DNA from: Tagaea sp. | GTDB taxonomy: Bacteria; Pseudomonadota; Alphaproteobacteria; CACIAM-22H2 | Reading direction: 5' to 3' | Assembly (NCBI GenBank): GCA_965279565.1 | Contig: OZ257249.1 | Span: 1,040,496 to 1,104,495 of the forward strand | DNA length: 64,000 bases | Part shown: piece after piece, positions 1,771-61,124 of the stretch | Layout: every line of letters begins with the position of its first letter | How positions within the stretch are numbered: position 1 is the first letter of the stretch | Position numbers and translations under genes: made by a program | Notes under the pieces: model-generated | What the model was told of the DNA's origin: nothing | The model's input: only the letters and a program-made list of their open reading frames with translations | Databases searched by the model: none

Positions 1771-2031
1771 CCTATTGATGCCCGAGCCAAACCTCGGGAG
1801 TTATGACGGGCGGGAATATACGCTTTTCCGCGCCCGAATCAAGTATTGAAGACACCCGATTAACCTTTTGGATTTCCGGGGCTAAATCGGCCTGCGCGCG
1901 GTCCCCGCAAACGGCCGGCAACGCGCTGCGACAGCCATTGGAAGCCCGTCGGCGCTGGGCTAAGTTCAGACGGAACGGTCGAGTCGCCCGCACGCGTATC
2001 GCGTGCGGTGCCAGATGGATACGCAACGGAC

Positions 2032-3762
2032 ATGTCAAAGCGGTCGGCGAACGGCACCCTTCGGGCAGCGGCACTTGCGGCGGCCCTGCTGGGCGGCTGC
2101 GCGACCCCGCCGACGGCACAGGCCCCGCAGATCGAGCCGGCCGGCAGTTCGGTCCCGACCGCATCCGGCAACTTCCTTGCCGCCCTGCATGCCCAGCGCC
2201 AGCGCGACGTCGCCGCGGCCGCCGAGTTCAGCGCGCGTGCACTCGAAGCCGATCCGGGCAGTCTCGATTTCATGCTGCGCGCGCATTCGAGCCTCGTGGA
2301 GGCCGGCCGCATCGACGAAGCGGCAGCTCTCGCCCAGCGCATCGTGCGCGTCAATGGCGGTTTTGCGCCTGCACATCTCACGCTCGCGGTTTCCGAGCTC
2401 AAGTCCGGTCTCAACGATGTCGCGCGCGCGCGCCTCGGCTCGCTGCCGATCCAGGGCATCAACCGCATCGTCCATCCGCTGATGCTCGGCTGGATCGAGA
2501 TGGCGCTCGACCGGCCCGCCGCGGCGATCATCGCACTTCGGCCGGTTCAAGAGGTGCAGGGCTTCCGGTCGCTGCACGACTACCATGTCGGCCTGATCAA
2601 CGAGCTGGCCGGCCGCTTCGCGGATGCCGAGGAAGCCTATCGCCGCGCGCTCGAAGGCGACGGCGGCGCCCCGCCGCGCCTGATCGAGGCGTTCGGCGGA
2701 TTCCTCGAACGGCGCGGCCGGGCGGCCGACGCACGCGCGCTCTACACGCGCTTCCGCGCGCAGAATCCCGAATCACCGGTGATCCGCCAGGGCCTGCGGC
2801 GCACGATGGCCGGCGGCCCGCCGGCGGCGGCACCCGCCTTTCCGGCAAACACGCCGGCCGCGGGTGCGGGTGAGGCGCTGGCGAATCTCGCCGCCGCTTT
2901 CCGGCAGGACAACACGGTGGCGCTCGCACTCGGCTACGGCCGTCTGGCGCTCTACCTCAACCCCGACGAAGCCTCATCGCTCGCGACGGTCGCCGACATC
3001 CTCGACCAGCTCGGCCAGCGCGCGGAGGCCGACAAGCTCTATGCGCGCGTCGATCCCGCGTCGGTGCACGGCTTCGCCGCACGCCTGCGCATCGCCGAGA
3101 ACCTGCACGAGTCAGGCGACACGAACGGTGCGGTGCGTGCGCTCGACCGGCTCGCCGCCGACCGGACGGACCGGATCGAAGCGCTGATGACGATGGGCAA
3201 CATCCTTCGCGAGAAGGAGCGTTTCGCCGAAGCGGCGTCGGCCTATGGTCGCGCGGTCGAACGCCTCGGCACGCCGGAGCCGCGCCACTGGACGCTGTTC
3301 TACATGCGCGGCATCGCCTTCGAGCGCGCGAAGAACTGGCCGGCCGCCGAGCAGCACTTCAAGCGCGCGCTGGAACTGCAGCCTGACCAGCCGGACGTGC
3401 TGAACTATCTGGCCTATACGTGGGTCGACAAGAACCAGAACATCGCCGAGGCTGAGCGCATGCTGCGCCGCGCGGTCGAGCAGCGCCCGAATTCGGGCCA
3501 GATCGTCGACTCGCTCGGCTGGGCCTATTTCCGGCTCGGCCGGTTCGAGGAGTCGGTCCCGCTTCTCGAACGCGCGGTCGAGCTGCTGCCCGAGGACGCC
3601 GTCATCCTCGACCATCTGGGCGACGCGCTGTGGCGCGTGGGAAGATTCCTCGAAGCCTCGTTCCAGTGGCAGCGTGCGCTGCGCAACAAGCCGGAACCCG
3701 ATCTCAAGGTCGAGATCGAGAAGAAGCTGCGCGACGGGATGCCCGCCACCGCTACGCGTTGA
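2032..3762 (+). CDS. TPR-repeat lipoprotein.
   Basis: The N-terminus MSKRSANGTLRAAALAAALLGGCATP has a lipobox LLGGC. Multiple TPR-like repeats follow, for example AEQHFKRALELQPDQPDVLNYLAYTW. Confidence 0.7.
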   Translation: MSKRSANGTLRAAALAAALLGGCATPPTAQAPQIEPAGSSVPTASGNFLAALHAQRQRDVAAAAEFSARALEADPGSLDFMLRAHSSLVEAGRIDEAAALAQRIVRVNGGFAPAHLTLAVSELKSGLNDVARARLGSLPIQGINRIVHPLMLGWIEMALDRPAAAIIALRPVQEVQGFRSLHDYHVGLINELAGRFADAEEAYRRALEGDGGAPPRLIEAFGGFLERRGRAADARALYTRFRAQNPESPVIRQGLRRTMAGGPPAAAPAFPANTPAAGAGEALANLAAAFRQDNTVALALGYGRLALYLNPDEASSLATVADILDQLGQRAEADKLYARVDPASVHGFAARLRIAENLHESGDTNGAVRALDRLAADRTDRIEALMTMGNILREKERFAEAASAYGRAVERLGTPEPRHWTLFYMRGIAFERAKNWPAAEQHFKRALELQPDQPDVLNYLAYTWVDKNQNIAEAERMLRRAVEQRPNSGQIVDSLGWAYFRLGRFEESVPLLERAVELLPEDAVILDHLGDALWRVGRFLEASFQWQRALRNKPEPDLKVEIEKKLRDGMPATATR

Positions 3763-12158: not shown

Positions 12159-13966
12159 TCGCGGGGCGCGGGGGCGGATCGCTCGATCTCGGCGTGGTCG
12201 GCAACTCGCAGATCGCCGCCCTCGTCGATCGCGCGGGGCGCGTGGTGTGGATGTGCCATCCGCGTCTCGATTCCGACCCGGCGTTCGGCGCGCTCGTCGA
12301 CGCTGATTCCGACGATGGTGCCTGGGCGTTCGAGATCGTCGACAGCACGGCGAGCGAGCAGCGCTACGTGCGCAACACGGCGGTTCTCGAGACCGTCGTG
12401 CACGATCTGCGCGGGGCCGCGGTCCGGATCGTCGATTTCTGCCCGCGGTTCAAGCGCCACGGCAGGACCTTCCGCCCGCCGATCCTCGTCCGCAGGCTGG
12501 AGCCGCTGTGCGGCGCGCCGCGCGTGCGCGTGCGCATCCGGCCGCGGGGCCTGCGCGGCGACGGAGCGCCGGCCGTGGCGCAGGGCAGCCACCACATCCG
12601 CTACGGCTTCCCGACTGGCGCGATCCGCGTGACGACCGATGCGCCGCTCGCCTACGTGCACGACGAGACGGCGTTTGCACTCGACCGCCCGTTCAACTTC
12701 GTGCTCAGCGGCGACGAGCCGCTCGCGGAAGCGCCCGACCAGCTCGTCACCTGGTGGCTCGCGGAAACCCACGCCTACTGGCTCGAATGGGTCCGCTATC
12801 TCTCGCTGCCGTTCGAATGGCAGCAGCCCGTCCTGCGGGCGGCGATCACGCTGAAGCTGTGCCAGTTCGAAGATACCGGTGCCTTGGTCGCCGCACTGAC
12901 CACGTCGATTCCCGAGGCGCCGGGGAGCTTGCGCAACTGGGACTACCGCTTCTGCTGGCTGCGCGACGCGTTCCACGTCATCTACGCGCTCAACCAGCTC
13001 GGCGCCACGCGCACCATGGAGGAGTTCATCGTCTTCGCCGCCGACGTCGCGACCGCGGCGCAGGCCGGCGAACTGCGTCCGCTCTATCCGATCGCGCGCA
13101 CGCCGCCGTCGGCGGAGGTCGAGATCGCCGACGCGCGCGGCTACCGGTCTAACCGGCCGGTGCGCTTCGGCAATTCGGCGATCGACCAGGTGCAGAACGA
13201 CGTCTACGGCTCCGTCGTCGTCGGTGCGGCACAGATGTTCTTCGACGAGCGGCTTCCCGCGATGGGCGGCAGCGCGCTCTACGAACGGCTCGTGCCGCTC
13301 GGCGTGCACGCGCGCGCCGTGGCGCTCTCGCCCGATGCGGGCATCTGGGAATATCGCGGCAGGACCGGCATCCACACGCATTCGGCCGTCATGTCGTGGG
13401 GTGCGCTCGACCGGCTTTCGCGCATCGCGGCACGGCTCGGCCGGCCGGTCGAATCCGCCGCGTGGCGGCGCGACGCCGACGCACTGCATGCCGAAATCAC
13501 GGCGCGCGCATGGGACGATGGCCGCAAGGCCTTCGTCGGCACGCTCGACGGCGGCGAGATGGACGGCAGCGTGCTGATCATGCCGATGGTCGGCTTCCTT
13601 TCCGGAAGCGACCCGCGCTTCCTTTCCACGCTCGATGCGGTCGGGCGCGAACTCGATTCCGGCGGATTCATCGCGCGCTACGCGCATGCCGACGATTTCG
13701 GGCGCCCCGAAACGGCCTTCGTCGTCTGTTCGCTCTGGTACGCCGAGGCGCTTGCGGCCGCCGGCCGCGTCGCCCAGGGGCGCGCCGTATTCGAGCGGGT
13801 GCTCGCCCGCACCAACCATCTCGGCCTGCTGTCCGAGGATATCGACCCCGCCAGCGGCGAGCTGTGGGGAAACTTCCCGCAAACCTACTGCATGGCCGGG
13901 CTGGTCAGCGCCGCGATGCGCCTCAGCCGCGGTTGGAAGGAGGGCATATGGGACGCCTTGTCGTAG
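12155..13966 (+). CDS. Glycoside hydrolase family 15 protein (glucoamylase/trehalase-like), GTG start overlapping the otsB stop.
   Basis: About 600 aa with a GH15 (alpha/alpha)6 catalytic-domain pattern (NWDYRFCWLRDAFHVIYAL; WEYRGRTGIHTHSAVMSWGALD; ARYAHADDFGRPETAFVVCSLWYAEAL). It lies between otsB and otsA. Confidence 0.75.
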   Translation: MIAGRGGGSLDLGVVGNSQIAALVDRAGRVVWMCHPRLDSDPAFGALVDADSDDGAWAFEIVDSTASEQRYVRNTAVLETVVHDLRGAAVRIVDFCPRFKRHGRTFRPPILVRRLEPLCGAPRVRVRIRPRGLRGDGAPAVAQGSHHIRYGFPTGAIRVTTDAPLAYVHDETAFALDRPFNFVLSGDEPLAEAPDQLVTWWLAETHAYWLEWVRYLSLPFEWQQPVLRAAITLKLCQFEDTGALVAALTTSIPEAPGSLRNWDYRFCWLRDAFHVIYALNQLGATRTMEEFIVFAADVATAAQAGELRPLYPIARTPPSAEVEIADARGYRSNRPVRFGNSAIDQVQNDVYGSVVVGAAQMFFDERLPAMGGSALYERLVPLGVHARAVALSPDAGIWEYRGRTGIHTHSAVMSWGALDRLSRIAARLGRPVESAAWRRDADALHAEITARAWDDGRKAFVGTLDGGEMDGSVLIMPMVGFLSGSDPRFLSTLDAVGRELDSGGFIARYAHADDFGRPETAFVVCSLWYAEALAAAGRVAQGRAVFERVLARTNHLGLLSEDIDPASGELWGNFPQTYCMAGLVSAAMRLSRGWKEGIWDALS

Positions 13967-15324
13967 TTTCGAACCGCATTCCGGTCGCCAATGCCCGCGT
14001 GGGCAGCACGGGCGGCCTCGCCGTGGCGCTGTCGGACGTGCTCGCGCGTCGCGAATCGCTGTGGATCGGCTGGAACGGCGCGGTCGCCGAGGCGCCGGGC
14101 GACGTCACGCACCGGCGCGTGCGGCGCACCGAGATCGTCGGCTTCGGCCTCACGCCGCAGCTCCATGCCGGGTTCTACACGGGCTTCGCCAACGGCGCGC
14201 TGTGGCCGCTGTTCCACTACCGGCTCGGCTTCGTCGACTACAGGCGCGACGACTATCAGGCGTATCTGGCGACGAACGCGCAGATAGCCGAACTCGTCCG
14301 GCGGAACCTGCGACCCGACGACACGCTGTGGGTCCACGACTTCCACCTGATCCCGCTGGCGCGCGAGTTGCGCCGGCTCGGCGTGACGCAGCCGATCGGC
14401 TTCTTCCTGCACATCCCGTTTCCGGCGGCCGAGTTCTTCCGCACCCTGCCCGTCCACCGCGATCTTGCCAACGCGCTCTCGCATTACGACCTGGTCGGAT
14501 TCCAGACGCAGACCTGCCGCCGGCAGTTCGCGGACTATGCCGGCTCGGCCGATCCCGCTTTCGCCGAGATCGGCGGGCGACGCTTCGAGACCGGCGTCTT
14601 CCCGATCGGAATCGACACGCAGCGCTTCGCCGCCATTGCGGCCAGCGGCGACGGCAGCCCGGAATCGCAGCGGCTCGCCGACAGCGTCGGCGGCCGGGCG
14701 CTCGTGATCGGGGTGGACAGGCTCGACTACTCCAAGGGCCTGCCCAACCGCATCGCGGGATACGGCGAGTTCCTCGCGCGCAGCCCCGAATGGCACGGCA
14801 AGGTGCAGTATCTCCAGATCGCGCCGATCTCCCGCGGCGACGTCTCGAACTACCGGGCGATGCGCCGCGAGCTCGACGGGCTGGCGGGCCGGCTCAACGG
14901 CAAATACGCCGAGTTCGACTGGACGCCGCTGCGCTATCTCAACCGCGGCTATCCGCGCAAATCGCTCGCCGGCTTCTACCGGCAGGCGCGCGCCGGGCTC
15001 GTCACGCCGCTGCGCGACGGCATGAACCTGGTCGCCAAGGAATTCGTCGCCGCCCAGCGCGCGGAGGATCCGGGCGTGCTCGTCCTGTCGGAATTCGCGG
15101 GGGCGGCGGCCGAGCTGGGCGGCGCCCTCAAGGTCAATCCCTATGACGTCGACGCGCTGGCCGACGCGATCGGCAAGGCGCTGTCGATGCCTCTCGACGA
15201 ACGCATATCCCGCTGGAAGGCGGATTTCGGGAGCATTTCGGCGAACACGGCATCGGCCTGGGCCGAGTCGTTCCTGTCCACGCTCGGCGCGACGCACGCG
15301 GCGCGCGTGCCTATCGCCGCCTGA
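13948..15324 (+). CDS. otsA: Trehalose-6-phosphate synthase (GT20).
   Basis: [45 protein letters not shown] is the canonical OtsA signature. Its start lies inside the GH15 3-prime end, a 19-nt overlap. Confidence 0.9.
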
Positions 15325-46049: not shown

Positions 46050-47306
46050 TCAGAACGCGAGCGTCAGACCCGAGATGACGCCGTTGGCGCGCGACGACTG
46101 CGTGCCCGCCGTGAAGAAGTTGGCGTTCTGCGCGGCCGCCGTGTTGAGCGTGCCTTCCGTGAACTTGGCGGTGAAGACGCCGAGGTTCACGTTCACGCCC
46201 GGAGCGAGCGTGTAGCGGCCCGAAGCGCTGAGAGCTTCGATCTTGTCCTTGCCGCCGTTCTGCTGGGCAACGACACCGTTCGTGACCGTCGAGTGGTCGT
46301 TCTGCGACTGCGTGTAGTTGATCGACACCGCAGCGGCGCCGAACACGTAGCCGGCACCGACTTCCCAGCCGTAGCCGTTGTGGTTGCGGAGGCCGTCGGC
46401 GAGAGCGGCCGCAGCCGTCGTCGTCGTGCCGCCACCGATCTGGCGCCAGTCGCTGGTCTTCTGGTACGAACCGCCGACGTCGAAGCCCATGTACTGGAAG
46501 CCGAGACCGGCGTTCCAAGCCGAGGGGTCCTTCAGCGAGGCCTTGATCGCATCCGAGTTGCCGTAACCCGACGGCTTGTCGAACGTGATGTAGCCAGCGG
46601 CGGCGCGGATGCCGACGCCACCGATCGTGCGGACGAAGTTCAGGTTGGCGCCCACGCCGTTGATGTACTGCGTGTTCTCCGTGGCGAGGCCCTGGCGGTA
46701 CGACATTTCCGGCGTGTAGTTGACGCCGAGCTGGAAGCCCTCGATGCGCGGCGTGTAGTACACGATCTTGTTCGAAATGCTGTCGATATCCATGCCCGTC
46801 GACGGGTGCGAAGCCTGACCCGACTGCGCGCTGACGCCAACGCGGCTGGTCGCGAACGCGCCAGCGTTGTTATCGCCGTTGATCATGCCGCCCGTGAAGG
46901 CTTCGAAGCCGCCCACGGCCGACTGCGAGGCGACGTTTTCGATGCCGCCCAGCTGGACCTGACCGAAGCTGCCTTCGATGAAGTTCCACATACGGCGGGT
47001 GATCGCGTTGCCCGACGAGGTGCCAGCGTTCGGGTTCAGCTGCCATACCGTACCGGCCGACATGCCCGACGGCAGGGCCGCACGGAAGGTCAGGATCAGA
47101 CGGTTGTCCGAGGTCTGGTCGATGCCGCTGCTGCGGATCTGGCCGGCAACGTTGGTCTGGTCCGTGTACTGGACGAACTGGCGGGCGTAGCCGCCGACGG
47201 TCACGGCGAAGTTCGCCGAACCGAACGGCTGGGCCGGCGTCTGGGCAAGGGCCGGAGCCACTGCCGCAGCGACCAGCGCCGTCGTCGCAAGAAGAAGCTT
47301 CTTCAT
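46050..47306 (-). CDS. Alphaproteobacterial general porin.
   Basis: Signal peptide MKKLLLATTALVAAAVAPALA, then 397 aa rich in G/T/N/Y with beta-strand alternation, and a C-terminal ...GLTLAF terminal Phe. Confidence 0.8.
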   Translation of the reverse strand: MKKLLLATTALVAAAVAPALAQTPAQPFGSANFAVTVGGYARQFVQYTDQTNVAGQIRSSGIDQTSDNRLILTFRAALPSGMSAGTVWQLNPNAGTSSGNAITRRMWNFIEGSFGQVQLGGIENVASQSAVGGFEAFTGGMINGDNNAGAFATSRVGVSAQSGQASHPSTGMDIDSISNKIVYYTPRIEGFQLGVNYTPEMSYRQGLATENTQYINGVGANLNFVRTIGGVGIRAAAGYITFDKPSGYGNSDAIKASLKDPSAWNAGLGFQYMGFDVGGSYQKTSDWRQIGGGTTTTAAAALADGLRNHNGYGWEVGAGYVFGAAAVSINYTQSQNDHSTVTNGVVAQQNGGKDKIEALSASGRYTLAPGVNVNLGVFTAKFTEGTLNTAAAQNANFFTAGTQSSRANGVISGLTLAF

Positions 47307-47626
47307 ACTTTTTTCTCCATGTTGAGGCCAGATTACGGCCGCGCGGTCGTGATCCGCCCGCTCCCGAGGTTTTTCGCCCATGGGCCCGTAAACGGTCAAC
47401 CCGAATAAGCCCTTCAGCGGGAATTCGAATTGACCATGTGGCACGAATGCAACATGCCCTCTACGGGGCAGTCGGCAATTCTGCCGGTGCATTTTGCAAA
47501 AATCCTAGGTTTCCAAGGAACTTAGGGGGGCGGGTTGCGGCAACGGCCCGAATGGACTAAATAGGTGGAATTATTGGCATCCGGGCGCGTTCCGGATGCG
47601 AACCCGCCTTTCACAAGGTCCTCGCC

Positions 47627-48163
47627 ATGCGGAATCCGGTTTTCGGCCTTTTCATCGGCACGGCCCTGCTCGGCTTCACGGCCTGCAGCGGGCTGAAGGT
47701 CGAGGATAATTACCCCACGGTCGTGCCCGGCACCGACAGCAAGTGGGCGCCGCGCGACCAGGTGAACAAGGAAGGCGTGTTCGGCGAGGAAGGCCTCGGC
47801 GGCCTGTTCGGCGGCGGCAAGAAGGACGAGGGCGGCGGCGGTATCGGCGTGAATGCGCTGCTGTGGCGCGCCTCGCTCGACACGATCAATTTCATGCCCG
47901 TCACGTCGGCCGATCCGTTCGGCGGCGTCATCATCACCGACTGGTTCGCGCCCGCCGAGACGCCGAACGAGCGGTTCAAGATGAACATCTACATCCTCGG
48001 CCGCGACCTGCGCGCCGACGGCATCAAGGTGGCGGTGTTCCGCCAGCGCCGCGACGCGACCGGCAACTGGGCCGACGCGGCGGTCGAGTCGCGCACGCCG
48101 ATCGACGTCGAGAACGCGATCCTGACGCGCGCGCGCCAGATCCGCCAGACCGCCGGCCGCTAG
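47627..48163 (+). CDS. DUF3576-type lipoprotein, conserved upstream of leuS in alphaproteobacteria.
   Basis: MRNPVFGLFIGTALLGFTAC has a lipobox, followed by a Gly-rich region. Confidence 0.65.
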   Translation: MRNPVFGLFIGTALLGFTACSGLKVEDNYPTVVPGTDSKWAPRDQVNKEGVFGEEGLGGLFGGGKKDEGGGGIGVNALLWRASLDTINFMPVTSADPFGGVIITDWFAPAETPNERFKMNIYILGRDLRADGIKVAVFRQRRDATGNWADAAVESRTPIDVENAILTRARQIRQTAGR

Positions 48164-48231: not shown

Positions 48232-50786
<2,555 letters not shown>

Positions 50787-50790
<4 letters not shown>

Positions 50791-52964
50791 GTCGCGGCAC
50801 CCGCCGCGCACCACTTCTTCCAGGCGGCGCGGTAGAAGCGCTCGAACTGGCGTGCCTTGGCGGGTGCCGCGCACAAAGTCGAATTCGCCACTCGCGCGCG
50901 CAGCGTTTCGCGCAGCACCGCCCGCCGCGGCGCGTCGTCGGCCAGACGCCGCGCAATCGCGAGATATTCCTCGGGCGAACTGGCGACGAGATCCTCGAGC
51001 TTCAGGCCCCTGAGCATCGCCGCCGTCCAGCGGCTCATCATGTTCCAGCCCGGCAGTGCCACGACCGGCACCCCCATGACCAGTGCGTCGAACGTCGTCG
51101 TCGAGCCTGAAAACGGGGACGTATCGAGGGCCACGTCGATCCCGTTGTACTGCTCCATGTGTTCGACGAACGAGCCGGCACTTGCGGGATAGTCGACGCG
51201 CGCCGGGTCCATGCCGTTGCGTTCGAAGGCGGCCGCTACCCGGGCCAGCAGCGACGGGACCTCGTACCAGTTCAGGTAACGCAGCAGGAGCCGGCTTTCC
51301 GGTACCTGCGCAAGCAGCAGCGCCCAAAGGTCGAGAGTCCGGTCCGAGACCTTGGACGGATTGTTGAGGCTACCGAACACGACCGGGCCCGCCGTGCGCG
51401 GCCGCACGGCCGGCAATCCTTCCGGAATCTCGGCGATGTAGAAGTGCGGCACACAAAGCACGCGCTCGGCGAATTTCTCCGCCGTGCCGCGCGGCGTCAT
51501 CGTCCGGTCGGAGATCAGGTAGTCCATCACTTCCATGCCGCTCGTCGCGGCGTCGTAGAGGCTGATCTGGATAGGTGCCGGCCGATGTGCGGCGACCAAT
51601 GGCCGGTTGAGGTCGAAGCGCCCGGCAAGGCAGACGAGGATGTCGATCCCGTCGGCCCGGATTCGGTCGGCCACGGCCCGGTCGTCGTGGCCGATGGTCG
51701 ATTGCCAGCCGTCGGCCGCCGCCTGGAACGCCGCCGTCGTCGCATCGGGTATTGCGACCTCGCCGTAGAAGTGGATCTCGAACCGGGAACGGTCGTGCGC
51801 ACGCACCAGCGGCAGCAGGTTGCGCGCCACCGAATGGCCGCGCAGATCGGCAGACAGGTAGCCGATCTTCAGCCGCCGTCCCAGATCGCGCGTGTTCGCG
51901 TGACGTACGGCCTGCCTGTAGAGCGGGCGCGCGTGCTTCGCCTCGAACCGTCGGTGCTCGGCGAAGAATTTCTCCGGATCGACCGACGGGTGATAGGTCA
52001 GCGACAGCAGGATGTTGCGGTGCGCATCGACATGACCCGGATCGGCCAGCAGCGCCTTCTCGAAGCATTCCAGCGCCTCGTCGATGCGGCCAAGATCGCG
52101 CAGCACGCTGCCGAGATTGCCCAACGCCACCGCGTGGCCGGGATCGAGTTCGAGCACGCGCCGGCAGGCGGCTTGCGCCTCGTCCAGCCGGCCGAGATCG
52201 CGCAGTGTCACGCCGATGCTCGACCACGTCTCGGCAAGGCCGGGATCGAGCTCGACCGCCTTGCGGTAGCTTGCCAGCGCGTCCTCGCGCCGCTGGAGCT
52301 GGCTGAGCGCGTTGCCGCGGTTGGACCAGGCGCGCGCGGAATCCGGATGCGCCGCGAGAACCCGGTCGAACTGCGCGAGTGCTTCTTCCTGCCGCTTCAG
52401 CTTCAGGTACGCGGCGCCGAGATTCGTCGCGATTTCCGCCATGCCGGGTGAGAGCGACAGCGCGCGCTCGAACGTCGCCGCGGCGCGCTCGAATGCGCCC
52501 TGCTCGAACAACGCGTTCCCGAGATTGAATACGTATTCGGCGTTGCCCGGATCGGCTTCGAGTACGGCCAGATAGTCCTGCTCGGCGTTCCGGAACTCGC
52601 CGAGGCCGAGATAGGCGTTGGCCCTGTTCACGAGAGTCGCGACCGAGCCCGGCTGCATCTGCAGCGCCTTGTTGCAGGCGTGGACGGCCTTGCGGTGATG
52701 GCCGAGCCTGACGAGCGCGAAGGCGAGATTGGACAGCGCCATCGGCTGGCGCGGGGCGCGTTCCAGCGACTTGTTGATCCAGTCGATCGCCGCCTTGAAG
52801 TTCCCGGTCTGCAGAAAAACGATGCCCAGATGGTGGAGGGCATCGGGGTTCTTCGGATCGAGCTTCAGGATTTCGTGGTACCCGGCCTTCGCGGCGTCGA
52901 GCCGGCCCGCCTGGTGGTTCGCCAGGGCGGCCCGGAACAGCGAGGTCTCGTCGGCCTTCGCCAT
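50787..52964 (-). CDS. TPR-repeat protein with a C-terminal GT41 (O-GlcNAc-transferase-like) domain.
   Basis: About nine N-terminal TPR units ([26 protein letters not shown]...). The C-terminal roughly 350 aa show the OGT-like pattern ([21 protein letters not shown]...[24 protein letters not shown]). Confidence 0.7.
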
Positions 52965-54566
52965 TCAGACGCGCAGCAGCCAGAACTGGTAGCCGCCGAA
53001 CAGCGACGGGTCGGCCTTCTCGACGGCTTCCCAGTTCGCGAGATCGGCGAACGTCTTTTCCTTCGGGAAGCGTTTCGCGTAGGCGCGTGTCGCGGGCACG
53101 TCGTCGGTGCGCCGCGCGGCCTGGCCGAGGCCGAAATCGAAGCCGAGGAAGCGCAGCGGCAACCCGTCGATCAGGCGGCGGATGCCCGCGATGTCGTAGC
53201 GATGCTCCATCACGTGGAAGCACAGATCGCGCAGCAGGCTGGCACTGTGGAAATCCGACCAGTGCGGCAGCTCGGTCTGCAGACGCTTGCCGAGCGCACC
53301 CGACTGCACGTCGGCACGGAAGGCGCGCAGGCCGGTAAGATCCGACGCGTAGCCGCGCGCGGCGATGGCCGCCCTCGCTTCGACCACGGCGGCGCGGCCG
53401 TGCTCGCCATAGAGCCCGAGGCGCATGAAGCTGCCGGGCACGCTCACCGCGACCAGCGCTTCGAGACCGGCGCGCGGATTCTCCATGTGATGCAGCACGC
53501 CGATCGATTCGACATGGCCCCAGCTTGCGCCGAGCTTCGGCAGGTCGAGGATGTCGGCCTGCGCGAAATGGATGTTCGGCACGCCGATCGTCTCGGCCTT
53601 GACGAGCCCGTAGGCGAGCGAGGCGCGCGACAGGTCGACCGCCTCGACCTGCACGTCGGCATAGTTGGCCGCGACCGTCAGCGGGTGCTGGCCCGTACCC
53701 GCACCCGGCATCAGCACGCGCAGCGGGCTGGTGAAGGCGGGGAAGGGGCCGGCGAATTCGAAGCGGCGGGAAAGCTCCGCGCGGATGTCGAAGGGCACGA
53801 TGCGCCGCAGGTTGAGCCAGCGCGGATAGGGGTTCGTCTCGTACATCGCCCCCACCGCGAGGCTCGTGCGGTCGATGATCGAGATGAGCGTGGGGATGCG
53901 CGATTGCGCCGCGCGCACGTTCTCGGGCGCCGTGATCGTCGCCGCGACAAGGCCGGCAAGCTCGGGGAACATGCCGGCATCCGCGTCGAGCGGGGCGAAC
54001 ATCGCGCGGCGCGCAAGCCCGAATGCATCGCGGGGCAGGTCGGCGGCCGAATCGTCGGCCGTCTGCGGCCAGATGAATTCGTTGTTGTCGGCCTGCAGGG
54101 CGAGAGCGAGGACAAGCGGCATGGCGCCGACCGGCATGTCGGGCGCGCAGAGTGCCCGGCGCGCCTTGCACATGAACGCCTCGAAGACCGGGTCGCGCAC
54201 GATGCAGCATACGAGCGTGGCCAGCATCAGCCCGTCGCGCGCCATCGCGAGCAGCAGGTCGCGCGCCGGCGTCTGCTGGGGATCGTCCATCCGGTACTTG
54301 CGCACGAGCTGGGCGGTCGCGCTCTGCGACAGCGCCTCGGTGTTCGCGCCGGGGGCCGCGAGGGCCGCCTCGATCAGCCCGGCCAGGCGCGGATGGAAGG
54401 ACGGCGTGCGCGCCATCTCGAGGATCGAGACGAGCCCGTCGAGTGCATCAAGCTGCTGCGGGTCGGCGGAAAGGATGGCCGCGTAGGCGCCCAGCGCCCC
54501 GTCGAGGTCGCGTGCCGCGTGCAGGCGCCTTGCCTTGGCAAGCGCTTCGTCGATTTTCTGATCCAT
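52965..54566 (-). CDS. Class I SAM-dependent methyltransferase with a roughly 230 aa TPR-like/helical N-terminal extension.
   Basis: Motif I LRVLMPGAGTGQH and motif post-I VQVEAVDLS. Its TGA stop is immediately followed, with no spacer, by the ATG of the OGT-like gene. Confidence 0.65.
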   Translation of the reverse strand: MDQKIDEALAKARRLHAARDLDGALGAYAAILSADPQQLDALDGLVSILEMARTPSFHPRLAGLIEAALAAPGANTEALSQSATAQLVRKYRMDDPQQTPARDLLLAMARDGLMLATLVCCIVRDPVFEAFMCKARRALCAPDMPVGAMPLVLALALQADNNEFIWPQTADDSAADLPRDAFGLARRAMFAPLDADAGMFPELAGLVAATITAPENVRAAQSRIPTLISIIDRTSLAVGAMYETNPYPRWLNLRRIVPFDIRAELSRRFEFAGPFPAFTSPLRVLMPGAGTGQHPLTVAANYADVQVEAVDLSRASLAYGLVKAETIGVPNIHFAQADILDLPKLGASWGHVESIGVLHHMENPRAGLEALVAVSVPGSFMRLGLYGEHGRAAVVEARAAIAARGYASDLTGLRAFRADVQSGALGKRLQTELPHWSDFHSASLLRDLCFHVMEHRYDIAGIRRLIDGLPLRFLGFDFGLGQAARRTDDVPATRAYAKRFPKEKTFADLANWEAVEKADPSLFGGYQFWLLRV

Positions 54567-54602
54567 CGCGCGCACGCTTAGCAAACTGCTATCATCGGCG
54601 CC

Positions 54603-55634
54603 ATGAAGATCGACGGGCGTGGAATCGCCGGATTCATCAAGCGGCCGGACCCGGCCGCCCGCGTGGTGCTGGTCTTCGGCCCCGACGCCGGCCTCGTGCG
54701 CGAGCGCGCCGAGGCGATCGCGCGTACGGCCGTGCCCGATCTCGCCGACCCGTTCGCGGTGGCCGAACTCTCGCCCGACACGCTGAAGGACGATCCGGCC
54801 CGCCTGTCCGACGAGGCGGCCGCCATCCCGATGCTGGGCGGCCGACGGCTGGTCCGCGTGCGCGGGGCGGGTACGGAATCGCTCGCCGCGGTCAAGAACC
54901 TGCTCGACGATCCCAAGGGCGACGGGCTGGTCGTGATCGAGGCTGGCGAACTTGAAAGCAAGTCCGCCCTGCGCAAGCTGTGCGAGGCGGCCGACAACGC
55001 CGCGGCGATCGCCTGCTATCGCGACGAGGGGGCCGATCTTTCGCGCACGATCGCCGACAGCCTCGCCGCATCCGGCATTTCCGCCGATTCCGACGCGCTC
55101 GAATGGCTGGCGATGCGCCTTGGCGGCGACCGCGCGATCACGCGCAGCGAGATCGAGAAGCTGTCGCTCTATGTCGGGGCCGGCAAGCGCGCCAGTGTGG
55201 AGGACTGCATCGCGATCATCGGCGATTCCGCCGACATCGATCTCGACGACGTCATCCGCGCCACGGCCGGCGGCGACATGACGTCGCTCGACCGCGCCTA
55301 TTCGCGCGTGTCGGCCGAGGGCGACAGCTCGATCGGCGTGCTGCGCATGGTGTCGCGCCATTTCCAGCGCCTGCAGATGGCGCAGGGCGAGATGGCGCGC
55401 GGCCTCGATGCCGACGCCGCGATGGGCAAGCTGCGCCCGCCGGTCTTCTGGAAGGAAAAGGCGCCGTTCAAGACCCAGCTTGCCCGCTGGCCGCTGCCGC
55501 GCCTGACCGCCGCGCTGGAACGGCTGCTGGAGGCCGAGATCCAGTGCAAGTCGTCGGGCATGCCGGCCGAGCTGGTCGCCCAGCGCTGCCTGATGGCGCT
55601 GGCCCAGATGGCCGCCCAGGCCGCCCGCCGTTAG
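54603..55634 (+). CDS. holA: DNA polymerase III subunit delta.
   Basis: ARVVLVFGPDAGLVRERAEAIAR...ELESKSALRKL is the HolA family pattern, in the usual leuS-downstream neighbourhood. Confidence 0.8.
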   Translation: MKIDGRGIAGFIKRPDPAARVVLVFGPDAGLVRERAEAIARTAVPDLADPFAVAELSPDTLKDDPARLSDEAAAIPMLGGRRLVRVRGAGTESLAAVKNLLDDPKGDGLVVIEAGELESKSALRKLCEAADNAAAIACYRDEGADLSRTIADSLAASGISADSDALEWLAMRLGGDRAITRSEIEKLSLYVGAGKRASVEDCIAIIGDSADIDLDDVIRATAGGDMTSLDRAYSRVSAEGDSSIGVLRMVSRHFQRLQMAQGEMARGLDADAAMGKLRPPVFWKEKAPFKTQLARWPLPRLTAALERLLEAEIQCKSSGMPAELVAQRCLMALAQMAAQAARR

Positions 55635-55691: not shown

Positions 55692-56618
55692 ATGAGCATC
55701 GGGCCGTTTCGAGCCGTCGGACAGATCGACAATGTACCGCGCGGCGCCTCGCGCGAGGTGGTCGACGCGATCCGCGACGCCAGCCAGCGCAGCGGCGTCG
55801 ACTTCAAGTACATGCTCGCCAAGGCCCAGACCGAATCGAGCTTCGATCCGCGCGCCAAGGCGCGCACCTCGTCGGCCTCGGGCCTCTACCAGTTCATCGA
55901 GAGCACGTGGCTCAACACCGTGCGCCAGCATGGTGCGAAACACGGGCTTGGCGACGCCGCCGCCCAGATCGAGGACGATTTCGCCGGCAATCCGCGCGTG
56001 CGCGATCCGGCCACGCGCCGCTCGATCCTCGACATGCGCTTCGATCCGAAGACCGCCAGTGCCATGGCCGCGGAGTTCGCCAAGTCGAACCACGCGCAGC
56101 TCGAGAACGCGCTGGGCTCCGGCGTCAACTCGACCGATCTCTATCTCGCGCACTTCCTGGGGGCGGGTGGGGCCACGCGTTTCCTCGCGAGCCACCGCAA
56201 CGATCCGCAGCGCGTCGCGGCCGCACAGTTCCCCGAAGCCGCCGCCGCCAATCGCGGCGTGTTCTACGATCCGCAGTCGGGCCGTGCCCGCACGCTCGGG
56301 CAGGTCTACGATTTCTTCGCGAAGAAGATGACCGGCGAGATCGCCACGGTCGACGCGACGACGGCCGAAGAGCTGCCGGCAGCACCCGCGATGGGCCCGC
56401 GCAAGACGAAGCCCGAGCTGCCGGCGCAGCTCCAGGCGCTCGCCGCACAGTTCGGTCTCAAGGGCGCTTCGCTGAAGCCCGAAACCATCATGGCCATGGC
56501 GCTTCTGGCCGAGCCGCTCGTCGCCTCGGTGCGCGGCGGCAACTCGCTGTTCGATCAAGGCGGCAAAGCAAGCCGCGTGGGTGCGGGCAAGGTGTTCAAC
56601 CCGGATATCGGAATCTAG
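55692..56618 (+). CDS. Lytic transglycosylase (SLT-domain) family protein.
   Basis: LAKAQTESSFDPRAKARTSSASGLYQFIESTW is the SLT catalytic-Glu / GLMQ-like motif. The C-terminal half is low complexity. Confidence 0.7.
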   Translation: MSIGPFRAVGQIDNVPRGASREVVDAIRDASQRSGVDFKYMLAKAQTESSFDPRAKARTSSASGLYQFIESTWLNTVRQHGAKHGLGDAAAQIEDDFAGNPRVRDPATRRSILDMRFDPKTASAMAAEFAKSNHAQLENALGSGVNSTDLYLAHFLGAGGATRFLASHRNDPQRVAAAQFPEAAAANRGVFYDPQSGRARTLGQVYDFFAKKMTGEIATVDATTAEELPAAPAMGPRKTKPELPAQLQALAAQFGLKGASLKPETIMAMALLAEPLVASVRGGNSLFDQGGKASRVGAGKVFNPDIGI

Positions 56619-56668: not shown

Positions 56669-56908
56669 ATGAGCGTATCCTGTGCCGTAGGCGCCTGGGC
56701 GATGATGGCCCTTGCGATGGACAAGGCGGACGAAATGAAGTTCGCCTGCTACCCGGACCGCAAGACCTGCGTGGAAATGATGGAAGGCCTCGCGCGGCGC
56801 ACCAAGCGCGGCTTCGACAACGGCGTCGTCGGCTGCCGCTTCGAGCGCGACGCGGTCGTGGGATCGGCGAAACTGCCGGAGACGGCGGGGATCACGCAAC
56901 AGCGTTGA
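56669..56908 (+). CDS. Small hypothetical Cys-containing protein (79 aa).
   Basis: GGGGGAG lies 8 nt upstream of the ATG, and the ORF ends the long same-frame read-through ORF. Four Cys residues (CAVGAW...CYPDRKTCVEMMEG...GCRF). Confidence 0.35.
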   Translation: MSVSCAVGAWAMMALAMDKADEMKFACYPDRKTCVEMMEGLARRTKRGFDNGVVGCRFERDAVVGSAKLPETAGITQQR

Positions 56909-56949: not shown

Positions 56950-57648
56950 CTATTCAATCTTTGCGCTTTTTTGAAGATTGTGGCGCACACACAAGAGCTG
57001 AACATTCTCTGCCGTTAGAGACGTGCCGCCGCGCGAGTAGGGCACAACGTGATCAAAGTGGAGTTCATCGCTTGCGCCGCACTTCGTGCAGCGTCCTTGG
57101 TCTCGCTTCCAAACTTCTAGCTTTACCGAAGCCGGGATTATGCGTTGTCGCGATATCGCAAGTTTCCTGGTTTCAACTGCACCCAAGCGCTGATCTTCGG
57201 CTTCAACGGCAACTAACTTAAACTTAAATACAGAGCGCTTATCGACTTGTTCTTGCCAAACATCGACTAGCCGGAAATAGCCGTTATCGCTCCAGATTCC
57301 GCCGCGGATTTTTTCATAGACGCGAACTAAATCCGCGTCCTTCTCACTTGCTTTGTATTTCCGCGCGGCAGCGGCGAATTTGCCATTCTCTGTCGGCTTG
57401 CCTGACGGAAGGAACTCGGGCTGATCGACGAGCTTTGGATGGGGCGCACCCTTTCGCCGCGCCATGTCATGGCCTTCGTAAACAAGGACTAGCCCATCAT
57501 CTTCGATTCGATCGGCATAGGGGGCGTCAGGTCTCAGTGACATTAGAATCACGGAGTGGCGACCATTGAGCCGAAAATTCATTCCGCGCTGAAGGCTAAC
57601 GCCTTCAATTTGGCACATCTCAATGTAGCTAATTACTTGGCCGCGCAA
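56950..57648 (-). CDS. HNH endonuclease-domain protein with an uncharacterised N-terminal domain, encoded in a low-GC islet. The probable TTG start at 57648 is preceded by GAGGA; an alternative ATG lies at 57618.
   Basis: C-terminal HNH motif CTKCGASDELHFDHVVPYSRGGTSLTAENVQLLCVRHNLQK (CxxC...HxDH...N...HN). Local GC is about 50% against about 70% in the flanks, with rare codons (TTA, CTA, ATA). Confidence 0.7.
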   Translation of the reverse strand: MRGQVISYIEMCQIEGVSLQRGMNFRLNGRHSVILMSLRPDAPYADRIEDDGLVLVYEGHDMARRKGAPHPKLVDQPEFLPSGKPTENGKFAAAARKYKASEKDADLVRVYEKIRGGIWSDNGYFRLVDVWQEQVDKRSVFKFKLVAVEAEDQRLGAVETRKLAISRQRIIPASVKLEVWKRDQGRCTKCGASDELHFDHVVPYSRGGTSLTAENVQLLCVRHNLQKSAKIE

Positions 57649-59156: not shown

Positions 59157-59807
59157 CTACTCGCCGACGCCGACCACGTCGACGAGACCTTCGCGGATCG
59201 CGTCGGCCAGCGCGTCCATGCCCTTGGAGAGTTCCTCGTGCGCGCGGCGCAGGGCGGAAAGCTCCTCGACATTCGCGCGGCCGACCGGCGAGCGGTTGGC
59301 GCCGAGATCGACGATGCAGGCGAGATAGCGCGCGCGGGCGCGCGCGGAATGCTGGATGGCCTGCTCGACCTCGCGCGTGCGCACGCGCGTGACGATCTCG
59401 CCGACCGCCTTGGCCTCTTCGGTCTTCGCGAGATGTTCGATGGTCTTCAGGAATCGGCCACGGCTCATCGGCTCCATCGCGTCGGGCATGCGGCGCGCGG
59501 GCACCTGCGGCTTGGGCTGGACCTGTGCCGAACCGCCGGCGGGGGCGGCCCCGCGCGGAACGAGGTTGGTCGACGCGACGGCAAGCTGCGGGCGGGCGGT
59601 GGCCGGGCGGGGTGCCGGGGCCACGGGTGCGGGAGCGGGTGCCGCCGACGTCACGGGCACCAGGCGCGGCTCGATCCGGCTGCCCTCGGTTCCGGAGAAC
59701 AGCGAGCGGCGGGCGGGCTGTGCCTGTGCCGCTTCGGGCTGGTTCTGGGACGCGAGGTTGAACAGGCCCTTGTGGGACGGCAGGTCGGCGGTGGCGGCTT
59801 GCGACAT
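59157..59807 (-). CDS. Hypothetical protein: PA-rich N-terminal half, helical C-terminal domain.
   Basis: An internal Met (MSQAATADLP...) heads a coding-like frame. The C-terminal roughly 90 aa is a charged helical domain (GRFLKTIEHLAKTEEAKAVGEIVTRVRTREVEQAI). No recognised family. Confidence 0.4.
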   Translation of the reverse strand: MSQAATADLPSHKGLFNLASQNQPEAAQAQPARRSLFSGTEGSRIEPRLVPVTSAAPAPAPVAPAPRPATARPQLAVASTNLVPRGAAPAGGSAQVQPKPQVPARRMPDAMEPMSRGRFLKTIEHLAKTEEAKAVGEIVTRVRTREVEQAIQHSARARARYLACIVDLGANRSPVGRANVEELSALRRAHEELSKGMDALADAIREGLVDVVGVGE

Positions 59808-60071
59808 GGTGCTCGGCTCCGGAACGCGTTGAGGTTCTTCTCCGGAATCCTTCGCAAGCCGCGCGCCAACCTTGAAATCGATCAATTTCAATCGGTTAGA
59901 TACGTTCCGGATCGCCCGATGCCCGGCAGAAACGGTCCCGGGCGGCATTAACTGCCGGGCCCCGGTGATGCCGGTCACTGACGCGGCCGGTCGCACGCTG
60001 TTACACGCGCTTCCTTGAGATGCAACTTCCGGCACTCAATAGTCGGCCCCACAAACTTACCCCCCGAATCC

Positions 60072-61124
60072 ATGAAACCCGCACCCGCCGTCCGACCCTT
60101 CGCGTGGCCGCTGCTTGCCGTGCTGCTGGCGATCTATGTCGTCGCGGAGGCGGCGTTCAACATCCGTCTCGTCGATACCGTGGCCGCCGCGGAGATCGAC
60201 CCGGACGAGCTCGACGAGCTGACCACGCTGGGCAAGCTGTCCGGCGCGTTCGGGCTGATCCTGTTCGCACTTCGCCCCGCACTCCAGCGCGTGCGCCGGC
60301 TGCGCGTGTGGCACGCGGGCGTTTTCCTTGCCGCGTGGGCGGCGGCCTATGGCGGCCTGACGCTCGTCTACGAGACGGTCCTCGACCGCGTGCCGGTCGA
60401 AACGCAGTACGAGGCGTTCCATCTGGCGCTGTACCGCGAGGCGGTGTTCGCGGGCCTGGTCGAGAATCCCGACCTGCGCGCGCGCGAAGGCGAGCTGGAG
60501 GATTCGCACCGCCTGGCGCTCGTCAATCTCGCGGCACGCCTGACCGGCGACAAGCCGGAGATCCTCGCGATGCGCGACTGGCTGGCGCGCGGCGAGATGG
60601 CGCGGCTGGAGGGCGTGGCGCTCGAACCGCGCGCCGAGGCGGCCCTTGCGCGCGCGCGCGACGCCGGCGACGGCACGCTGCGCAACGCGACGGCCGCGAT
60701 GTTCCTGCCGCCGATGTCGATGACGCTGTCGCTGCTGGCGATCGTCGCGAATCTGGGCGCGCTTGCAGCCCTCGTGCTGGCGCGCGCGCGGCGCCGGCGC
60801 GTGCGCCGGCTGGCCGCGATGGTGCCGCTGCTCGCCGTCGCCCTCTTCCTCGTCGCCGCCGACCGGCCGCCCTTCGCCGCCGACAGCGCCAACTTCCATC
60901 TCTATACGCAGCTCGAAAACCGGCTCGGAATCGTGGGCTGGATCTGGGGACGCGCGATCAACGGCGAGGCCGCGATCCTGAAGATGTCGGCCGACGCGAT
61001 GGCGTCGCCCGCGAACTGGCGTTCAGCGGGGCTTGCGTTCGAGCCGGGCCAGCAGGTCGTCGAACTGGTCGAGCGAGCTGTAATGCAGCACGAGCTCGCC
61101 CGCACCGCCCTTGCGGGGCCGTAG
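60072..61124 (+). CDS. Hypothetical integral membrane protein.
   Basis: MKPAPAVRPFAWPLLAVLLAIYVVAEAAF is followed by several further hydrophobic segments. The 3-prime end overlaps the parB 3-prime end by about 100 nt, so one of the two calls may be too long. Confidence 0.4.
   Translation: MKPAPAVRPFAWPLLAVLLAIYVVAEAAFNIRLVDTVAAAEIDPDELDELTTLGKLSGAFGLILFALRPALQRVRRLRVWHAGVFLAAWAAAYGGLTLVYETVLDRVPVETQYEAFHLALYREAVFAGLVENPDLRAREGELEDSHRLALVNLAARLTGDKPEILAMRDWLARGEMARLEGVALEPRAEAALARARDAGDGTLRNATAAMFLPPMSMTLSLLAIVANLGALAALVLARARRRRVRRLAAMVPLLAVALFLVAADRPPFAADSANFHLYTQLENRLGIVGWIWGRAINGEAAILKMSADAMASPANWRSAGLAFEPGQQVVELVERAVMQHELARTALAGP

Follow-up and report, generated by a model that had tools for sequence, protein, structure and literature searches.

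What has become of lptE between leuS and holA in the alphaproteobacterium Tagaea sp., and what do the two genes found there do? We approached these questions in a 64,000-nt stretch of contig OZ257249.1 (assembly GCA_965279565.1, positions 1,040,496 to 1,104,495, forward strand), referred to at its full length as the window. Here, a gene for a tetratricopeptide repeat (TPR) glycosyltransferase of family GT41 and a gene for an S-adenosylmethionine (SAM)-dependent methyltransferase occupy the leuS-holA junction on the opposite strand. Judged from sequence comparison, the arrangement appears to be an old, vertically inherited rearrangement that is ancestral to a family-level lineage of Rhodospirillales-like alphaproteobacteria. 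The explanation that we favour, at a probability of roughly 0.6, joins this inherited rearrangement to a methyltransferase/GT41 unit acting on proteins. The locus interrupts one of the best-conserved gene clusters of the Proteobacteria, which is rarely broken, and prompts one to ask whether this uncultured lineage has an lptE at all and, if so, where. It consists of the following features (window positions):

47627-48163, plus strand: DUF3576 lipoprotein gene (Pfam PF12100, E=4.5e-42; lipobox present)
48232-50790, plus strand: leuS, leucine-tRNA ligase, 852 aa (TIGR00396, E=0, 1014 bits)
50787-50790: CTAG, shared by the stop codons of leuS and the GT41 gene, which converge and overlap here (read from the sequence)
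50787-52964, minus strand: TPR-GT41 open reading frame (ORF), 725 aa (TPR_1 and Glyco_transf_41, PF13844)
50790-52004, minus strand: GT41 catalytic domain, aa ~321-725 (PF13844, E=3e-42; SPINDLY alignment)
52005-52964, minus strand: GT41 TPR superhelix, aa ~1-320, ~9 repeats (start codon 52962-52964; TPR_1, E=2e-67)
52965-54566, minus strand: SAM methyltransferase ORF, 533 aa (Methyltransf_25, E=1.4e-9, aa 284-377)
52965-53741, minus strand: methyltransferase core, aa ~276-533, a seven-beta-strand SAM fold with Rv2067c-type helical insertions (stop codon 52965-52967)
53757-54566, minus strand: N-terminal all-helical domain of the methyltransferase, aa 1-270 (a degenerate TPR first, then a helical domain)
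54567-54602: 36-bp spacer between the start codons of the methyltransferase gene and holA (read from the sequence)
54603-55634, plus strand: holA, DNA polymerase III delta subunit, 343 aa (TIGR01128, E=8e-55)
55692-56618, plus strand: SLT-domain gene downstream of holA

An initial annotation of this DNA had described leuS and holA as split by two large opposite-strand genes in TGA-ATG abutment, and both its coordinates and its reading of the junction agree with ours: the minus strand runs ...CGC GTC TGA ATG GCG..., placing the stop of the methyltransferase gene directly before the start of the GT41 gene (52965/52964). The convergence of leuS and the GT41 gene with a 4-nt overlap was likewise correctly noted, with the TAG stop codons of both genes sharing the palindrome CTAG. 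The TGA-ATG abutment is kept in all four relatives that carry the pair (loci L081-L084). The CTAG stop overlap recurs in L081 and L082, a 6-nt gap takes its place in L083, and L084 has an additional phosphonate-binding-protein gene between leuS and the GT41 gene.

The lptE slot and the age of the arrangement

The expected content of the junction was taken from 80 alphaproteobacterial leuS loci (leuS identity 48-67%, or 92% in one truncated locus). In nearly all of these, holA starts ~0.5-0.65 kb past the end of leuS on the same strand, and most have a DUF3576 gene upstream of leuS. The leuS-holA gap contains an ORF of 173 aa (median) with a lipobox that typically reads ..ACGF.PLY, and all four gap ORFs that were checked against Pfam match PF04390 (LptE). 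A complete leuS with 1.5 kb or more of sequence beyond it is available for 71 loci, and in 67 of these the LptE profile matches directly after leuS; since 61 of the same gap ORFs went into the profile, the count is partly circular. The order DUF3576, leuS, lptE, holA, which the initial annotation had given as usual for alphaproteobacteria, thus holds. The exceptions are one locus with a displaced lptE (L068) and three without an LptE match (L033, L062, and L080). L068, from a member of the Pelagibacteraceae, carries a 1.7-kb insert between leuS and lptE (12574-14855), and in the Roseovarius metagenome-assembled genome (MAG) of L062 holA abuts leuS with no lptE (12541-12572). L033 and L080 belong to a Bdellovibrionales-labelled MAG and another Pelagibacteraceae genome.

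The window shares with this canonical cluster the same flanks (DUF3576, leuS, and holA) and the standard wider neighbourhood, with parAB, rsmG, and mnmG a few kb away (parB-parA-rsmG-mnmG at 61-64 kb), but it lacks lptE, and its holA is not downstream of a co-directional gene. The 61-sequence LptE profile finds no match better than E ~1 in a six-frame translation of the 64-kb window, and a lipobox scan of the window returns only the DUF3576 protein and no LptE candidate. The claim that no frame holds an lptE-like ORF is therefore borne out. The LptE expected after leuS would be a lipoprotein of ~170-200 aa with a PF04390 or profile match; the profile gives nothing better than E ~1 in any frame of L081-L089 either, and the ~20 kb surrounding the locus contains no LptE in any of seven relatives. 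When a 16-sequence LptE alignment was searched against a database, no contig of the lineage was among the best 120 of 756 matches, which is uninformative. By far the likeliest explanation is that lptE has been relocated elsewhere in the genome. Only a slim chance attaches to a true loss, in which the whole lineage would have no LptE and LptD would work without a lipoprotein plug or with a non-homologous one; complete loss, if true, would be remarkable.

The initial annotation had regarded the two genes as an insertion, and a recently acquired genomic island between leuS and holA would explain why they interrupt an otherwise nearly universal cluster. The relatives of the window, labelled as Azospirillum, Telmatospirillum, or Tagaea MAGs, argue strongly against this, as the arrangement is conserved in all seven other lineage genomes examined. 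In these genomes (leuS 82-95% identical), lptE is absent from the leuS-holA junction without exception. Four other assemblies (L081-L084) have the complete order DUF3576-leuS-GT41-methyltransferase-holA-SLT, with identities to the window of 93-95% for leuS, 74-81% for GT41, and 81-87% for the methyltransferase. At greater distance, L085/86 (GCA_016124335.1; leuS 90%, methyltransferase 72%) has the methyltransferase gene directly between holA and leuS. In other outer members (L087, L088/89, and L093; leuS 82-84%, methyltransferase 51-66%), the methyltransferase gene and holA likewise diverge, and between none and five further genes separate the former from leuS. One of these, in L093 (6555-6761, minus strand), is a 68-aa ORF with a coiled-coil-looking sequence. 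The constant resident of the junction is thus the methyltransferase, divergent from holA over a conserved 22-36-bp spacer.

A GT41 gene at the position seen in the window is confined to the inner clade. In L087, L088/89, and L093, GT41 genes lie on the other side of leuS, between leuS and DUF3576 (L087 16883-18736, L088 13726-19008, and L093 9390-11141; one or two genes each). Pairwise identity among these upstream GT41s is 41-44%, against 32-35% with the window GT41, and they hence belong to a different paralogue group. GT41 genes thus came to lie next to leuS on at least two occasions. The two genes at the junction therefore differ in age within the lineage and did not arrive as a unit: the methyltransferase is older and constant, the GT41 gene at its present position younger.

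Composition also speaks against an island. The initial annotation had proposed codon usage and GC skew as a check for insertion, and neither gives a foreign signal. Codon-usage cosines to the pooled window genes are 0.956 for GT41 and 0.967 for the methyltransferase, the GC contents at third codon positions (GC3) are 0.85 and 0.89, respectively, and neither GC content nor skew has a discontinuity at the locus. Among the hallmarks of a genomic island, neither atypical composition nor patchy presence nor mobility genes or an integration site were found, and there are no repeats, tRNA, or integrase at the locus. A recent island is thus extremely improbable. Instead, the same arrangement in the relatives together with native codon usage places the rearrangement in the ancestry of the lineage. 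Of the two signs that the initial annotation had named for an ancestral state, namely close relatives sharing the arrangement and lptE being located elsewhere, the first holds for every close relative found. On a deeper view, lptE has nonetheless been replaced at the locus in a lineage-specific manner.

A SPINDLY-like glycosyltransferase and an Rv2067c-like methyltransferase

The C-terminal part of the first protein matches Glyco_transf_41 (PF13844) with 144.9 bits against a cut-off of 25 (E=3.4e-42), and its N-terminus contains eight TPR_1 stretches within aa 2-320, as expected for a TPR superhelix. The match of 145 bits settles the assignment to GT41, on which the initial annotation had made its reading depend. 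The description as O-GlcNAc-transferase-like needs refinement. Among solved structures, the best full-length match is Arabidopsis SPINDLY (SPY; 7Y4I/8DTF, E=3e-97), with human O-GlcNAc transferase (OGT) also among the best. Both catalytic lobes are collinear (query 148-720 with SPY 267-846). Query residues 222-723 correspond to residues 18-524 of Thermobaculum terrenum OGT (TtOGT; 5DJS, E=1e-73), and Xanthomonas XcOGT (2JLB) is matched with E=9e-23. SPINDLY and the T. terrenum and Xanthomonas enzymes have the same architecture of an N-terminal TPR superhelix and a two-lobed GT41 domain without the metazoan intervening domain. What sets the window GT41 apart from SPINDLY is its bacterial origin, its ~9 TPRs, and the presence of several paralogues per genome.

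SPY residues reported to be functionally important (PMC9715652) were mapped through the alignment. D491, H495, and S496 correspond to D373, H377, and S378 of the window GT41, and N661, K665, and H728 to N534, K538, and H602. SPY T747-749 correspond to S621-T622-T623, and Y744 to F618. The nucleotide-phosphate-binding lysine (SPY K665, human OGT K842) and the active-site His-Ser pair are thus present as K538, H377, and S378, and the catalytic Lys, His, Ser, and Asn of SPINDLY are conserved. Across 16 orthologues and paralogues, the equivalents of SPY D491, H495, S496, N661, K665, H728, and T748 are conserved, and F618, K538, and H377 are invariant.

The position of F618 bears on the donor sugar. 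A strict O-GlcNAc transferase would be expected to have a small residue such as Cys at the position of human OGT C917, so that the N-acetyl group can be accommodated; the window protein has Phe. It has been argued that a bulky aromatic residue at this Y744/C917 position excludes N-acetylglucosamine (GlcNAc), which is a proposal and not an established rule; SPY, XcOGT, and TtOGT have Tyr there, the glucose-using ApHMW1C has Phe, and the true OGTs of human and fly have Cys (PMC9715652). The window GT41 thus shares an aromatic residue with SPINDLY but has Phe instead of Tyr, as in ApHMW1C. Phe at this donor-selecting position makes GlcNAc an unlikely donor, and judging by this single residue the enzyme probably uses a smaller sugar. 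On that argument, it is better called SPINDLY-like than O-GlcNAc-transferase-like: the initial annotation was right about a genuine GT41 enzyme, but the closest relative is SPINDLY and the donor-selecting position holds Phe.

The two halves of the protein evolve differently. The TPR arm is 65-83% identical among orthologues and 34-41% among paralogues, and the catalytic domain stays 50-64% identical among paralogues, which would fit a substrate-selecting arm on a common catalytic engine. GT41 genes occur in several copies in these genomes, with a second copy (P0049) on the same 4.09-Mb contig as the window gene and several also in L088 and L092. PADLOC gave only generic domain matches for the GT41 protein and the methyltransferase and no defence-system assignment.

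For the methyltransferase, a phmmer search against the Protein Data Bank (PDB) gives Mycobacterium tuberculosis Rv2067c (8HKR), a seven-beta-strand protein-lysine methyltransferase, as the best solved-structure match (E=3e-12, residues 276-476). A profile built from 37 members of the family matches 8HKR with E=4e-32 over positions 279-478, which include the core and the inserted helical subdomains; the next methyltransferase in this search follows at 1e-19 and is matched over the Rossmann core only. The Methyltransf_25 match and the motif LMPGAGTGQ, which is nearly invariant in the family, identify the SAM fold. An AlphaFold model based on the alignment of these family members is of very high confidence (pLDDT 94, pTM 0.91), and eight of its ten best Foldseek matches in the PDB are Rv2067c and the Rickettsia protein lysine methyltransferases PKMT1 and PKMT2. 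Rv2067c is matched with E=3e-12 and a TM score of 0.56 relative to the target, PKMT1/PKMT2 with E=6e-9 to 5e-8 over ~300 aligned columns, followed by generic small-molecule methyltransferases.

The dimerisation domain of Rv2067c is formed by helical insertions after beta-5 and between beta-6 and beta-7, and its substrate trough is said to resemble that of PKMTs (PMC10739865). Our model has four helices (392-449) after the beta-5 strand (375-387) and two helices (491-518) between beta-6 (471-476) and beta-7 (525-532), so that the predicted topology agrees with this description. The window protein and Rv2067c thus share the same Rossmann core and helical subdomains at ~23% identity. They differ at both ends: the window protein stops with beta-7 (residue 533), lacking the C-terminal alpha+beta domain of Rv2067c, and begins with 270 additional residues that form the TPR-led helical N-domain. 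It also comes from a non-pathogen, with no evidence of secretion. PKMT1 and PKMT2 (5DNK, 5DO0, and 5DPL), which are OmpB lysine methyltransferases, are alphaproteobacterial and of similar overall size. They rank second as a group of structural matches, but their accessory domains differ from those of the window protein, and the family profile matches PKMT2 over ~80 residues of the SAM-binding core only (E=6e-7), making the link to PKMTs a structural one.

The initial annotation had assigned TPR or helical repeat arms to both proteins. This is correct for GT41 and, for the methyltransferase, holds as far as a helical domain: the window protein has no Pfam TPR match in its N-domain, and a TPR is detectable at the family level, where 14 of the 37 homologues match and profile positions 6-50 match consensus TPR proteins. 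The remaining ~220 residues are all-helical. Modelled alone, the N-domain reaches a pLDDT of 89, and a Foldseek search with it gave no significant match (best E=0.36, with weak matches to TPR-type chaperones). The most economical reading is a cytoplasmic protein methyltransferase that probably acts on lysine and has its own substrate-recognition domain; it does not obviously resemble a sugar O-methyltransferase. Together with its homologues, it represents a subfamily of Rv2067c-like methyltransferases that is widespread in alphaproteobacteria, uncharacterised, and marked by the TPR-led N-domain; the lineage copy at this junction is fixed beside holA.

A 49% identical paralogue in GCA_016124335.1 (L090, 8001-9599) adjoins a cluster of ArnT-like (PMT_2/Arnt_C), GT2, EamA, and polysaccharide-deacetylase genes, the typical make-up of a lipid A aminoarabinose-modification locus.

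A presumed shared control region and a possible joint function

As holA has no co-directional gene upstream, a promoter of its own is required, within or adjacent to the 36-bp spacer that separates it from the methyltransferase gene. The spacer contains a perfect palindrome, TAGCA-N3-TGCTA (54579-54591), which occurs nowhere else in the window, against a chance expectation of 0. In seven loci the core of the spacer is invariant despite considerably diverged flanking coding DNA, and L093 has it with one mismatch. Both half-sites contain GCTA, which we take to resemble a Caulobacter-type -10 element, 9-16 nt from each start codon. A promoter scan of the 50-56 kb region found no sigma-70 consensus, and a terminator scan of the same region found terminator-like sites that are no commoner than chance and on the wrong strand. 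It is possible that the spacer comprises back-to-back promoters with very short leaders, or that it serves as an operator for some regulator.

In the scenario that we favour, lptE would have left the leuS-holA site, and the methyltransferase gene would thereafter have stood head-to-head with holA, sharing a 22-36-bp control region. In the inner clade, a SPINDLY-like TPR-GT41 gene would later have been placed directly downstream of the methyltransferase gene. Given the stop-to-start abutment, the two genes most likely form a single unit of transcription and translation, which converges on leuS. Both enzymes, neither of which has a signal peptide, would act in the cytoplasm and choose protein substrates by their helical or TPR arms. 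The methyltransferase would move a methyl group from SAM to lysines, and the GT41 enzyme a sugar smaller than GlcNAc, such as a hexose or deoxyhexose, to Ser/Thr. Gene identities, their conserved order, homologies in sequence and structure, native codon usage, and intact catalytic residues are shown by the data, and from them we infer co-transcription, the protein substrates, the type of donor sugar, and any cooperation; functional cooperation of the two enzymes is plausible but unproven. The initial annotation had suggested an O-glycosylation plus methylation pair with protein or glycan substrates. Of this, the pairing stands insofar as both enzymes look protein-acting and the genes look co-transcribed, and methylation of a glycan does not fit the methyltransferase, whose specific homology is to protein-lysine and not to sugar O-methyltransferases.

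Several observations weigh against this scenario. Homology to Rv2067c is no proof of lysine methylation, the donor-sugar argument draws on one residue and one paper's proposal, and co-transcription is deduced from gene spacing only. L085/86 has no GT41 gene nearby, so the pair is not obligate. The 49% identical methyltransferase paralogue and distant homologues occur in unrelated contexts without GT41, the closest non-orthologous GT41 (51% identical) also has an unrelated context, and no GT41-methyltransferase module outside the lineage was found at the 49% paralogue, a 37% homologue, or the 51% GT41 relative. Furthermore, the 64-kb window and the flanks of the relatives contain no flagellin, pilin, or adhesin genes.

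Some of these points would also follow if the two genes had become neighbours by accident of the rearrangement, with unrelated substrates and no joint function. Such an accident would account for L085, which keeps the methyltransferase without a nearby GT41, for the methyltransferase paralogue and distant homologues that are not beside GT41 genes, and for the multiple GT41 copies in these genomes (P0049 on the same contig, several in L088 and L092), but not easily for a stop-start abutment that is conserved across four genomes. In addition, all but one of the seven other genomes examined have, like the window, a GT41 gene within 3 kb of the methyltransferase gene, in two positions and from two paralogue groups. 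We consider a mere accident unlikely, while giving it appreciable weight.

Alternatively, the pair could modify flagellin or another secreted surface protein before export, with an FlmG-like glycosyltransferase and a methyltransferase that resembles the PKMTs acting on OmpB. FlmG binds flagellins by its N-terminal TPR domain and glycosylates them by its C-terminal GT-B domain in the cytoplasm (PMC7591256). The same logic of a soluble TPR protein that binds and glycosylates another protein would apply to the window GT41, and PKMT1/2, the structural neighbours of the methyltransferase, methylate an outer-membrane protein. In addition, a Porin_4 gene (46050-47492, minus strand; Pfam) is located three genes away from the pair, and a chemoreceptor (MCP) gene in the window suggests motility. 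However, there is no flagellar, pilus, or adhesin gene in the window or the relatives' flanks, and FlmG of Caulobacter, described only as GT-B and not as GT41, transfers pseudaminic acid, whereas the window has no linkage to flagellar or nonulosonic-acid genes. The analogy thus comes without linkage evidence, and a surface-protein target seems rather improbable.

The replacement of lptE itself might suggest that the genes act on envelope glycans or lipopolysaccharide and took over the lptE slot for a functional reason, and the ArnT/GT2/EamA/deacetylase cluster beside the 49% paralogue in GCA_016124335.1 points in the same direction. Against this, characterised GT41 enzymes modify proteins, both proteins lack a signal peptide and have TPR or helical protein-binding arms, and the specific homology of the methyltransferase is to protein-lysine methyltransferases. 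The genes are also on the opposite strand and have no similarity to LptE, making such a role very unlikely.

A protein-acting methyltransferase/GT41 unit, as we favour it, would be a natural operon pairing a methyltransferase with a SPINDLY-like GT41 and could make cytoplasmic protein glycosylation and lysine methylation in bacteria, two modifications with few known substrates, accessible to study in a simple setting. The finding concerns members of known families in a lineage-specific rearrangement; it overturns no current understanding, and its practical value is limited.

Other genes in the window and in related genomes

The rest of the window is occupied by housekeeping genes, including metK, lnt, corC, phoH, miaB, plsC, fur, mucR, rimI, and tsaB. 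Rfam and tRNA scans of the 64-kb window found no Rfam match and no tRNA gene.

Downstream of the SLT gene, a conserved 79-aa ORF (56669-56908, plus strand) has a hydrophobic N-terminus, several cysteines, and no Pfam match, and gene calls in L081 and L083-L086 give it a length of 79-83 aa. Between this ORF and the dihydrodipicolinate synthase (DHDPS) gene lies a gene for a 232-aa HNH endonuclease (56950-57648, minus strand) with a weak SRA-like N-terminal match (E=4e-4). It is clearly foreign, with a GC3 of 0.54 and a codon-usage cosine of 0.72. The content of this slot varies among the relatives: L081 has genes for a DNA methylase and a GIY-YIG nuclease there, L083 has an HNH gene, L084 has one for a solute-binding protein, and in L085 the slot is empty. 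It looks like a small integration hotspot with restriction-modification-type cargo.

Between a response-regulator gene and parB, two conserved genes encode proteins without Pfam match, namely a 220-aa protein with an apparently disordered Pro/Ala-rich middle and a helical C-terminus (59157-59819, minus strand) and a 369-aa multi-pass membrane protein (60015-61124, plus strand). Genes that correspond to them in size and position, also without Pfam match, are found beside parB in L085, L087, and L088.

Finally, a 584-aa protein encoded at 2008-3762 (plus strand) has TPRs at aa ~358-545 and an N-terminal half without Pfam match, and the lineage appears to be rich in TPR proteins.

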